Positions 30,873 through 33,271 of a stretch of 64,000 bases of DNA are shown in pieces. Position 1 is the stretch's first letter. Each line of letters begins with the position of its first letter. The notes under the pieces are model-generated. The model saw only the letters and a program-made list of their open reading frames with translations, searched no databases and was not told the origin of the DNA. The stretch is from Duganella fentianensis. GTDB lineage: Bacteria > Pseudomonadota > Gammaproteobacteria > Burkholderiales > Burkholderiaceae_D. The position numbers were made by a program, and so were the translations under genes. Location of the stretch: contig NZ_CAXIQN010000022.1 in the NCBI RefSeq assembly GCF_964031615.1, positions 19,090 through 83,089 of the forward strand, read 5' to 3'.

Positions 30873-31271
30873 GTGACCGGCGCAGCAGCACGCGCGCCGG
30901 TGCCCACCTGGCTGGCGACGGGCGCAGGGCGCGAAGCGGCGATTGCCGCCCGCCTTGGCGCGCCCGCTGCGCCGTCACCAGACGCTGGTTCCAGCGTCGT
31001 CATCCTCGAAGGCATGCCCACCGGGCTATCGCCGCTGGCCGATCTGGCCGATACCTCTCCTAGTGTGCAAGTGTTGCGAATTGCTCCCGGTTGCCTGCAT
31101 TGCAGCGGCAATCTGGTTTTGCGAGTAACATTGAACCGTGTTCTGCGTCATCCGCCCGAGCAGCTATATATCGGGCTGGCCAGCGCCGAGCACCTTGAGC
31201 TGTTGCGTGACTTTTTACAGGCGGCCCCGTATGCCGCCTTGCTGGACCTGCAAGCTGATCTGGCGGCCTGA
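30873..31271 (+). CDS. Small protein resembling a degenerate CobW/YeiR-type GTPase N-terminus
   Basis: APGCLHCSGNLVLRVTLNRVLR..PEQLYIG; family call is inference. Confidence 0.6.
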   Translation: MTGAAARAPVPTWLATGAGREAAIAARLGAPAAPSPDAGSSVVILEGMPTGLSPLADLADTSPSVQVLRIAPGCLHCSGNLVLRVTLNRVLRHPPEQLYIGLASAEHLELLRDFLQAAPYAALLDLQADLAA

Positions 31272-31276
31272 ACCCT

Positions 31277-31328
31277 GCCGCCGGAGCGCCGGCCGCCGGA
31301 TCGCCGGCCGCCGGATCGCCGGCCGCCG
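31277..31328. repeat. 15-bp tandem repeat GCCGCCGGATCGCCG x3.5
   Basis: Copies start at 31277 (one mismatch), 31292, 31307; partial at 31322. Confidence 0.9.
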
Positions 31329-31330
31329 TA

Positions 31331-31359
31331 CTTGTAAAAGGGCGTCACCAGCCCCACTT
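31331..31359 (+). promoter_or_regulatory. Candidate sigma-32 (RpoH) promoter
   Basis: CTTGTAA-N14-CCCCACTT vs consensus CTTGAAA-N13-14-CCCCAT. Confidence 0.4.
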
Positions 31360-31412
31360 CGGTGGGGACGACGCAACCGACCAGTGTTACGTCCCTAGTG
31401 AAAGGAAGCAGC

Positions 31413-31670
31413 ATGAACCTCATCTATAACAGCGAACAGTTCAGCGTCCTCGAGTTTGGTGTCGACCGCAGCCATGAAGCCTTGCGCTTTGGCGGCTATG
31501 AAATTGTCGACAAAGGGGGCAAACGTGAAATCTTCATCAACGGCATACTGGCGCAGAATTTCCGCCGCGACGTTAGCGAACTGATCGCGAGCGAACCGAC
31601 GATGGCCGAGATCGACGAATTCCTCGGCAGCTACAACGAAGTCATGAGCTATCCCGCGACGCTGCACTGA
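31413..31670 (+). CDS. DUF3567 / BTH_I0359 family protein
   Basis: AAGGAAG RBS; MNLIYNSEQF, GGYEIVDK...REIFI, EIDEFLGSY. Confidence 0.8.
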   Translation: MNLIYNSEQFSVLEFGVDRSHEALRFGGYEIVDKGGKREIFINGILAQNFRRDVSELIASEPTMAEIDEFLGSYNEVMSYPATLH

Positions 31671-31725
31671 GTTGTGGCCAGCGTCGTCAGGCCTAGTGGG
31701 CTTGGCGCTTTTATTTGCTATCAGT

Positions 31726-31760
31726 AAGCCCCTCGCTGCACATTACGAGGGGCTTATTTC
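31726..31760 (+). terminator. Intrinsic terminator after DUF3567
   Basis: AAGCCCCTCG-loop-CGAGGGGCTT then ATTTCTTT. Confidence 0.75.
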
Positions 31761-31848
31761 TTTGCGCTGCATCGCAGAATGCCGTTTGTTTGGCATTTCA
31801 TTAAACTTTACTTGCTCGTTACTACCAGGGTGTGCCTGCACGCAATCT

Positions 31849-32188
31849 CCTCGTATTTATCGGGGCAGGGAGATCAGGCAGTATCTGCGAGCAAAAAACG
31901 CCTTGGGTTGTTGTCTGGCAAAGGACACGATTTTGTGCATCCGTTTTCCAGCCAAAGCGACCTTGATCGAAGAATCCTTGCATGCACTACAGTTTTCGAC
32001 GGGGCTTTACAATTGTGTCGTCGATCGCACAGGCAATCTGCGGGCGAATCTGGCGATGGAATATCAGGCGGCCAGCATGCTGGTTGCTCATCAGCACAGG
32101 TGGAAATTGCCAACGCGCGAAACAGGGGAGAATTGTCGGCGCCTGCGGCTGTATTCCCGTACCATATCTGCGAGTGGAGGAGCGCTAA
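31849..32188 (+). pseudogene. Start-less remnant of a putative zincin-like (EExxH) polymorphic-toxin domain
   Basis: Frame of ORF 31672-32280 reads EIRQYLRAKNALG...DTIL...ATLIEESLHALQ...LAMEYQAASML...WKLP..E...RLRLY; no plausible start; family call from memory. Confidence 0.5.
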
Positions 32189-32189
32189 C

Positions 32190-32459
32190 ATGGCATTTAC
32201 GTTTGAAATTACGCAGATCAGCAGACTCGCTCAAGCCCATGTTGGAATTCTTGATGGGAAGCTGCTTGAAGGGGCGATAGTTACGGGAACCATCGTCCAT
32301 CTGGTGCATGGCGACCAGCGCTTGCCGTTACGGGTGAAAGGCGTGGTACTGGATGCAGCAGGGCGGAGCGATGGTGCGCTGAGCGTTACGGTTGACTTGC
32401 GCGAGCAAGCGATGCAACTAGCCCGCGTTGGCGATAGGCTGACTGCAATGGAGCATTGA
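32190..32459 (+). CDS. 89-aa beta-barrel-like protein (EF-Tu domain II-like), candidate immunity protein
   Basis: GGAGG RBS at 32176-32180; FTFEITQIS...ILDGKLLEGAIVTG pattern resembles translation-factor domain II. Confidence 0.7.
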   Translation: MAFTFEITQISRLAQAHVGILDGKLLEGAIVTGTIVHLVHGDQRLPLRVKGVVLDAAGRSDGALSVTVDLREQAMQLARVGDRLTAMEH

Positions 32460-32497
32460 ATTGCCGCGTGACAGCGGCCAGTGGTTATAATCGGGTG

Positions 32498-33271
32498 ATG
32501 TGCCAATTACTCGCAATGAATTGCAATGTGCCCACCGACATTGTGTTCAGTTTTACCGGCTTCGCCATGCGTGGCGGCCAGACCGATACCCACCATGATG
32601 GCTGGGGCATCGCCTTTTTCGAAGGCGCCGGTGTGCGCCATTTCGTTGACCATCAGGCGGCCGTCAGTTCGCCTATCGCCGAACTGATCAAGCGCTATCC
32701 CATCAAGTCCAAGAACGTCATCGCCCATATCCGCAAGGCTACGCAGGGGCAGGTGGCGCTGGAAAACTGCCATCCTTTCGTGCGCGAGCTGTGGGGCCAG
32801 TACTGGGTGTTTGCCCATAATGGCGATCTGAAAGCCTTCGCGCCCGTGCTCGATGGCCCGTACCGTCCCGTCGGCAGTACCGATAGCGAGCTGGCGTTCT
32901 GCTACATCATGCAGCAATTGCGCAACCGTTTCGGCACCGAACGTCCCGCCCGTGCTGCCCTGCGTGCTGCGCTGGCCGAGCTGACGCAGGAAATTGCCGC
33001 CTATGGCACTTTCAATATGCTGCTGTCCTCGGGGGCCGAACTGTTTGCCCATTGCTCCACCAATCTCGTATATCTGGTGCGCCAGTATCCGTTTGACACG
33101 GCGCAGCTGTCGGATGAAGATGTGCAGGTGGACTTCTCGCAGGTGACGACTCCGAACGACAGGGTTGCCATCATTGTGACGCAGCCGCTGACGACCAATG
33201 AACAATGGACGGCGTTTCAGCCCGGTGAATTGAAAGTGTTCGTGGACGGCATGCCGGAAACGCAACTGTGA
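32498..33271 (+). CDS. Class II glutamine amidotransferase (YafJ-like)
   Basis: MCQLL N-terminal Cys, DGWGIAF, AHIRKAT, NCHPF, FAHNG, GSTDSE. Confidence 0.93.
   Translation: MCQLLAMNCNVPTDIVFSFTGFAMRGGQTDTHHDGWGIAFFEGAGVRHFVDHQAAVSSPIAELIKRYPIKSKNVIAHIRKATQGQVALENCHPFVRELWGQYWVFAHNGDLKAFAPVLDGPYRPVGSTDSELAFCYIMQQLRNRFGTERPARAALRAALAELTQEIAAYGTFNMLLSSGAELFAHCSTNLVYLVRQYPFDTAQLSDEDVQVDFSQVTTPNDRVAIIVTQPLTTNEQWTAFQPGELKVFVDGMPETQL

Follow-up and report, generated by a model that had tools for sequence, protein, structure and literature searches.

The 64,000-nucleotide (nt) stretch of Duganella fentianensis DNA analysed here (the window; contig NZ_CAXIQN010000022.1 of assembly GCF_964031615.1, positions 19,090 to 83,089) carries a small gene whose 89-amino-acid (aa) product is a stand-alone barrel whose fold shows homology to that of domain II in GTPases of the EF-Tu type. 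In the reading preferred here, held with about even confidence, this miniprotein is the neutralising (immunity- or antitoxin-like) partner of a toxin-like enzyme and has been left in the window as an intact orphan. The toxin-like enzyme would be the product of the gene directly upstream, a basic protein about 146 aa long whose zincin-like motif has glutamate in place of the first histidine and is followed by a further conserved glutamate. The two proteins would bind each other tightly at a 1:1 ratio, with the barrel lying over the face that bears the motif. The pair would travel as a small mobile two-gene cassette with the cytoplasmic barrel as the product of the downstream gene, and a 137-nt deletion that removed the start of the upstream gene would have left the protective gene as an orphan. 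The small gene and its translation signal are as follows.

32190..32459, forward strand, stop codon included: 89-aa gene for the stand-alone EF-Tu-domain-II-like beta-barrel protein (P0001), from its open reading frame, homologues, fold, hhalign comparison and purifying selection
32176..32182, forward strand: Shine-Dalgarno sequence GGAGGAG, separated from the ATG by 7 nt (by 9 nt counted from the GGAGG core)

A rare family of short proteins

The reading frame is uninterrupted from ATG to TGA over 89 codons, and the GGAG of the ribosome-binding site is invariant in five aligned loci and in close relatives. The gene is real, as held by an original prediction, made from the sequence alone, of an intact 89-aa frame with a strong ribosome-binding site. 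A word-indexed search returned 14 homologues of 48–96% identity, each 87–89 aa long. Pairwise ratios of nonsynonymous to synonymous substitution rates (dN/dS) of 0.09–0.31, the lowest against the 96% identical relative, indicate purifying selection.

An exhaustive profile search of 1.84 billion representatives gathered 65 clusters, all short stand-alone proteins of 39–189 aa (mostly 80–120 aa) and none in the context of a multidomain GTPase. The family is rare, unannotated and stand-alone, with a length of about 87 aa. The gene is present in 4 of 401 genomes of the bacterial family, whereas about 390 genomes drawn from the order's other families yielded none; a family-pattern scan of the genome collection returned Duganella rivi only. 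It is absent from the viral contig collection, and family-pattern scans of the viral and metagenome contig collections found no relatives. The miniprotein has no family match in Pfam, NCBIfam or PHROGs. Its residues 2–77 weakly match the PADLOC defence candidate PDC-M02B (profile positions 251–326 of 364, E-value 8e-4), so this candidate may contain a further domain II-like module. A 201-nt contig from one metatranscriptome run covers 32233–32433 with five differences, which is not proof of expression in D. fentianensis, and no sigma-70-like promoters were found in 31300–32700. A copy in another genome (L009:1330-1761, genome G261) is broken by an in-frame TGA at about codon 28 and has probably decayed.

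The fold of EF-Tu domain II

The miniprotein was modelled with a pLDDT score (predicted local distance difference test) of 66.6 from 15 sequences; with 72 sequences, the pLDDT was 87.6 and the predicted template modelling (pTM) score 0.78. The model is a closed beta-barrel that superposes on EF-Tu domain II along its whole length. The top Foldseek rows were EF-Tu chains with template modelling scores by query of up to 0.77, and the best structural match was the EF-Tu domain in PDB entry 5i4q. Sequence identity to EF-Tu is 12–20%. In a separate scan of 48,161 representative chains, places 1–19 were taken by domain II of EF-Tu, eRF3, GTPBP1, SelB, Hbs1, aEF1A, CysN and LepA.

Profile comparison pointed the same way. 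An hhalign comparison of the small-protein family (alignment A3) with domain II of the genome's seven translational GTPases (alignment A11) gave a probability of 88.8% and a P-value of 2.5e-6 over 81 columns. The family profile also weakly matched EF-Tu domain II in the PDB (E = 0.17) and the domain II region of selenocysteine elongation factor (SelB) genes from related genomes. The miniprotein itself stays below the gathering threshold of Pfam PF03144 (GTP_EFTU_D2), with no match at E up to 1, and 5 of 72 family members matched PF03144 weakly (best E = 0.0074). From the fold and profile results, the domain II sequence pattern noticed in the original prediction was a true signal of homology in fold. 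The structure model, Foldseek and hhalign agree, and the modelling check that it had proposed returned a confident model with EF-Tu domain II as the top match.

Compared to the GTP_EFTU_D2 domains of Pfam, the miniprotein has no G domain and no domain III, falls under the Pfam threshold and has changed pocket positions. In the hidden Markov model (HMM) alignment, the small-protein family has T, Q and S where EF-Tu has E215, D216 and F218. These EF-Tu residues presumably line the aminoacyl pocket; if that is right, the barrel probably does not engage an aminoacyl end in the manner of EF-Tu. Other stand-alone proteins of this fold include Atlas clusters carrying GTP_EFTU_D2 and two solved barrels, Pbp11 of Pyrococcus abyssi (PDB: 7anu) and PF0907 (PDB: 4pgo). 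The latter two are archaeal, and no sequence relationship between them and the miniprotein was detected. Pbp11 binds tRNA and the proteasome activator PAN, and the abstract of the study describing it mentions no cassette or partner like that of the miniprotein (PMC9540759).

The upstream partner gene and its truncation

In each of the four chromosomal contexts listed below, the 440–660 nt directly upstream of the small gene are without any forward-strand gene call, yet they are conserved and coding in another frame. This frame spans about 146 codons and stays open in every lineage, with a dN/dS of 0.08–0.2 at saturated synonymous divergence, so the partner is a real gene under purifying selection. 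Its 3′ end overlaps the first 30 or so codons of the small gene, by about 90 nt or more and by about 150 nt in locus L002. Within the overlap, the frame of the small gene is under selection and variation falls at its third positions. The partner protein is very basic (isoelectric point 9.8–11), whereas the miniprotein is near neutral. It carries the motif EExxHAxQF, whose glutamates and histidine are invariant in all seven copies, and a conserved glutamate follows 26 residues later.

Intact partner copies have no family match (Pfam, PADLOC and PHROGs included), and their sequence profile retrieved nothing from the PDB. An Atlas feature search with the partner gave phage hypotheticals only, plus a 0.90 lead to the eCIS_core zincin family. 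No additional copies exist in 400 genomes of the bacterial family, and no longer or fused relatives were found, which is weak evidence. A programmed −1 frameshift fusion of the two genes was also considered; it is unlikely because the conserved overlap has no slippery heptamer, a stop in the frame of the small gene lies 21 nt ahead of the ATG in L002, and the small gene keeps a conserved ribosome-binding site. A diverged HAD_SAK_2 phosphatase was rejected as an identity for the partner (hhalign probability 0.1%).

In the window, the partner gene is represented by the following features.

31814..32280, forward strand: start-less remnant of the partner gene, in the frame of open reading frame 31672..32280, with homology recognisable from about 31849
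31969..31983, forward strand: EExxH motif of the remnant (E-E-S-L-H), followed by A-x-Q-F, from alignments A4, A7 and A10 and the hhalign match to an HExxHAxQF helix (P = 0.008)
31814..31828, no strand assigned: junction of the 137-nt deletion, its position ambiguous by about 14 nt

The tail of the remnant extends, in a different frame, over the small gene's first 91 nt. The remnant aligns by tblastn to residues 35–176 of an intact partner (P0081) at 48% identity, and its HMM match covers profile positions 29–150 of 150. Loci L023, L026 and L027 share the synteny of the window, encode small proteins 96% and 81% identical to the miniprotein, and hold an extra 137 nt with the partner start and amino terminus. 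The deletion took the start codon and roughly the first 40 codons, and no start codon with a ribosome-binding site is left in the remnant. From the missing 137 nt, the homology beginning at profile position 29 and the lack of a start, the partner gene in the window is a 5′-truncated pseudogene. A toxin-like remnant had been predicted just upstream of the small gene, and a truncated partner gene does lie there; by its motif and context, the partner is a putative toxin.

The region 31673–32129 also differs from its counterpart in L023 more than its surroundings do. About 10 kb of backbone are 92–98% identical and the small gene is 91–95% identical, while the upstream-gene part is 61–80% identical. 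The differences in this part lie mostly at third codon positions, with a dN/dS of 0.13 and a dS of 0.94 (0.24 in the small gene). To judge from this pattern, it looks as if the upstream-gene part was replaced by a diverged functional allele before the deletion, as opposed to having decayed.

A predicted complex over the conserved motif

An intact partner and its cognate small protein were modelled together, with an alignment supplied for each. The ipSAE interface score was 0.75 (0.77, 0.75 and 0.75 in separate runs) versus 0.00 for the best control. A mark of 0.75 is reached by 58 of 80 solved complexes and by 2 of 110 mismatched pairs, counts that are rough here given the custom alignments used. 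The runs share at least 87% of their contacts, and the pLDDT of the partner is at least 88. On the partner, the confident interface includes H79, E105 and the strand 54–63, which are invariant residues of the partner alignment (A10); on the barrel, the predicted contact surface comprises residues 11–20, 25–32 and 50–67. The prediction supports binding of the two proteins with the barrel over the conserved EExxH/E105 face, and from such a placement we infer that the barrel would act as a neutralising partner. Co-folding with an intact toxin homologue had been put forward in the original prediction as a check, and a complex is strongly predicted.

The original prediction had further suggested that the barrel may mimic the target of the toxin. 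The barrel would then be a decoy of EF-Tu domain II, and the toxin would dock on or cleave a translation factor. This explanation is attractive because a contact-dependent inhibition toxin, CdiA-CT of Escherichia coli NC101, docks exclusively on EF-Tu domain 2 (PMC5737660) and because the fold match is specifically to domain II, with the EF-Tu/eRF3/SelB/GTPBP1 group on top. The EF-Tu domain of the CdiA-CT(NC101)/CdiI/EF-Tu complex is that of 5i4q, the best structural match of the miniprotein. The contact surface of the barrel also corresponds roughly to the domain II face where the aminoacyl-tRNA end binds, although this mapping is approximate and inferred. In the CdiA-CT(NC101) complex, the toxin uses real EF-Tu and the immunity protein is helical. 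Identity to EF-Tu of just 12–20%, the HAD_SAK_2 partners described below, which mimicry leaves unexplained, and the fact that immunity proteins generally need not resemble targets all make this explanation distinctly unlikely. A specific form of it is similarly improbable: the miniprotein would protect by occupying the site with which the EExxH enzyme seizes EF-Tu or the EF-Tu-bound tRNA end, and the HAD_SAK_2-linked relatives would do likewise against an RNA-end enzyme. If mimicry did apply, it would represent immunity by target mimicry and point to a new class of translation-factor-directed toxins.

Gain and decay of the two-gene cassette

The two genes form a discrete unit, which was found in four different chromosomal contexts.

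31671..32473, forward strand: the whole two-gene cassette, inserted or deleted as a unit between the DUF3567 and GATase_4 genes, delimited by empty-site contigs and by the other contexts
Window: DUF3567 gene on the left, GATase_4 gene on the right
L001 and L002: TonB-dependent receptor on the left, DNA polymerase II on the right
L004: purM on the left, phosphofructokinase on the right
L021: SpoU methylase on the left, M1 peptidase on the right

Public contigs mapped on the locus present three alleles: the deleted form, which comes from what is probably the source sample, the undeleted form and the empty site. The undeleted allele is seen in one wastewater metagenome contig that runs on from 31814 into the missing sequence. 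The empty site is seen in contigs from two independent metagenome runs, where 31670 is followed by 32474/32477 after just 92–100 other letters; the empty-site contigs are deeper than the cassette-bearing contigs of the same runs. The cassette is polymorphic among close relatives, and the three alleles mark it as a discrete unit of about 0.8–0.95 kb. No convincing terminal repeats were found at its ends.

Six lineages retain the pairing of partner and small gene, even where the identity of the small protein falls to 48%. Two overlapping small genes, a predicted complex and a patchy mobile distribution are all traits of type II toxin-antitoxin pairs. As in orphan immunity genes and reverse-order type II pairs, the downstream gene is small and tightly coupled to another small gene, basic and enzyme-like, in a sporadic mobile cassette; decay affects the first gene and spares the second, and the predicted complex covers the motif. 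The likeness is incomplete. A trafficking or Rhs/CdiA part is missing from the first gene, the family of the partner varies, and, unlike type II antitoxins, the miniprotein is without a DNA-binding domain, the whole 89 aa being one barrel with no helix-turn-helix, ribbon-helix-helix or AbrB-type region. Among the loci examined, none had a trafficked toxin (Rhs, CdiA, PAAR, LXG, type VI secretion system or similar) upstream of the small gene.

Four loci (L008, L009, L010 and L017) have no recognisable partner. They might suggest that the small protein serves a housekeeping-like function independently, for instance in translation or RNA metabolism, and that its neighbours are incidental. A very sparse and patchy distribution, presence or absence among close strains, an overlap with the partner that is conserved in six lineages, and the strong complex prediction leave this a very remote prospect. 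The gene-neighbourhood check that accompanied the original prediction therefore gave a mixed answer: six lineages have the toxin-like partner of 146 aa, while three have a HAD_SAK_2 gene, four have no partner and none has a trafficked toxin.

Weighing a neutralising role

Several observations weigh against a neutralising role for the miniprotein. The first group concerns the resemblance of the partner to Tox-MPTase4 (PF15640). The PF15640 HMM finds nothing in this genome even at E = 10, and intact partner copies have no Pfam match. An hhalign comparison of the partner with two true Tox-MPTase4 domains, one of them Rhs-fused, gave P-values of 0.008–0.015 and probabilities of only 3–5%. The first zinc-binding histidine of zincins is replaced by glutamate in all seven partner copies. 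At the true Tox-MPTase4 loci, the small open reading frames directly downstream, presumably the immunity genes, encode 79 and 83 aa and are unrelated to the miniprotein. The second concerns a different partner: three distant family members (P0017, P0019 and P0022) directly follow genes for HAD_SAK_2 phosphatases of 174–182 aa, a link by which the barrel may be a general accessory subunit as opposed to an inhibitor. Finally, just six rows made up the partner alignment from which the complex was predicted.

The match to Tox-MPTase4 speaks for the neutralising role at the level of motif layout. Over 29–30 ungapped columns, partner residues R66 and E75-E76-x-x-H79-A-x-Q82-F fall on R and H-E-x-x-H-A-x-Q-F, so that the arginine strand and catalytic helix align, a glutamate follows about 26 residues later, and the proteins are of similar size. 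Zhang et al. (2012, PMC3482391) described an HExxHxxQ...E signature in a related group of zincin toxins. The partner differs in its EExxH, its lack of an HMM match, its lack of an Rhs or secretion fusion and the different family of its downstream gene. Membership of Tox-MPTase4 is unproven, with a link at the level of a sequence motif, and a zincin-like fold for the partner is somewhat the likelier case.

Two of the HAD genes were scanned and are clear HAD_SAK_2 members (55–59 bits against a cut-off of 27.5) with DxD intact; the third is HAD_SAK_2 by a precomputed Pfam label. HAD_SAK_2 phosphatases are not known to be toxins, and no mention of PF18143 was found in the literature searched. Sampled across the phylum, 0 of 23 HAD_SAK_2 loci have the small gene, so the link is confined to one subgroup. 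Since its partners are either the EExxH protein or HAD_SAK_2, the barrel pairs with at least two unrelated small enzymes, which fits a reusable inhibitor scaffold and a shared accessory or targeting role alike. One HAD_SAK_2 locus (L015:778-8640), apparently an island of conflict systems, has two paralogues, the first without DxD, together with a zinc-ribbon protein with a weak match to an Xre/MbcA/ParS antitoxin carboxy terminus, a family-less open reading frame of 1237 aa and a DUF2726 gene.

As an accessory, targeting or activating subunit, the barrel would, like domain II within EF-Tu, bring various small enzymes to a shared substrate, for example the ribosome or a tRNA 3′ end. The HAD_SAK_2 link and the tRNA binding reported for Pbp11 (PMC9540759) speak for such a role. 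The predicted interface lies over the motif residues of the partner, where occlusion fits better than delivery, and the small gene outlasts the loss of its partner and stands alone in other genomes. The substitution of T, Q and S at the assumed pocket positions and the 0 of 23 HAD_SAK_2 loci also count against delivery, and an accessory role is judged possible but unlikely.

The neutralising role is favoured because the decay is asymmetric, the cassette behaves as a mobile unit, the two genes overlap, the motif face is occluded in the predicted complex and the proteins contrast in charge. The decay is asymmetric in that the partner is truncated and the small gene intact, and small genes without a partner occur elsewhere too. 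The orphan immunity protein of the original prediction is therefore upheld in its fold, its remnant, its intact survivor and its predicted complex; the absence of a trafficked toxin upstream and the HAD_SAK_2 partners do not agree with it. Inhibition by the barrel, as well as the toxicity and chemistry of the partner, are putative elements of this reading.

No report of a protein with the EF-Tu domain II fold in a neutralising role was found in the literature searched. If the pair behaves in this manner, a free-standing translation-factor domain would be a new fold among neutralisers of small toxin-like enzymes, and two unannotated protein families would gain names and a testable role. The fold also hints at where the target of the enzyme might be sought, namely EF-Tu, the aminoacyl-tRNA end or the ribosome. 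If the pair behaves otherwise, the gene would be one more rare accessory protein of unknown role. The empty site, the intact cassette and the form with a truncated first gene also make the locus a clean natural series for cassette gain and decay.

Flanking genes

The neighbours of the cassette in the window are as follows.

31413..31670, forward strand: DUF3567/BTH_I0359-family gene on the left flank (Pfam PF12091, E = 3.9e-30; NCBIfam NF050004)
31725..31756, forward strand: hairpin with a perfect 11-bp stem, then a T-rich run (inverted repeat I4), upstream of the remnant
32498..33271, forward strand: class-II glutamine amidotransferase (GATase_4) gene on the right flank (Pfam PF13230, E = 1e-120)

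The hairpin is a likely terminator after the DUF3567 gene. Further upstream, at 30873–31271 and just after an NtrX-like regulator, lies an open reading frame of 132 aa that matches nothing in Pfam or NCBIfam; it is conserved in relatives, whose annotation includes it as a gene of 132 aa. Gene callers in relatives start the GATase_4 gene at a GTG equivalent to 32468; the ATG at 32498, which is followed by a cysteine, is assumed here to suit better the N-terminal nucleophile of class-II amidotransferases.
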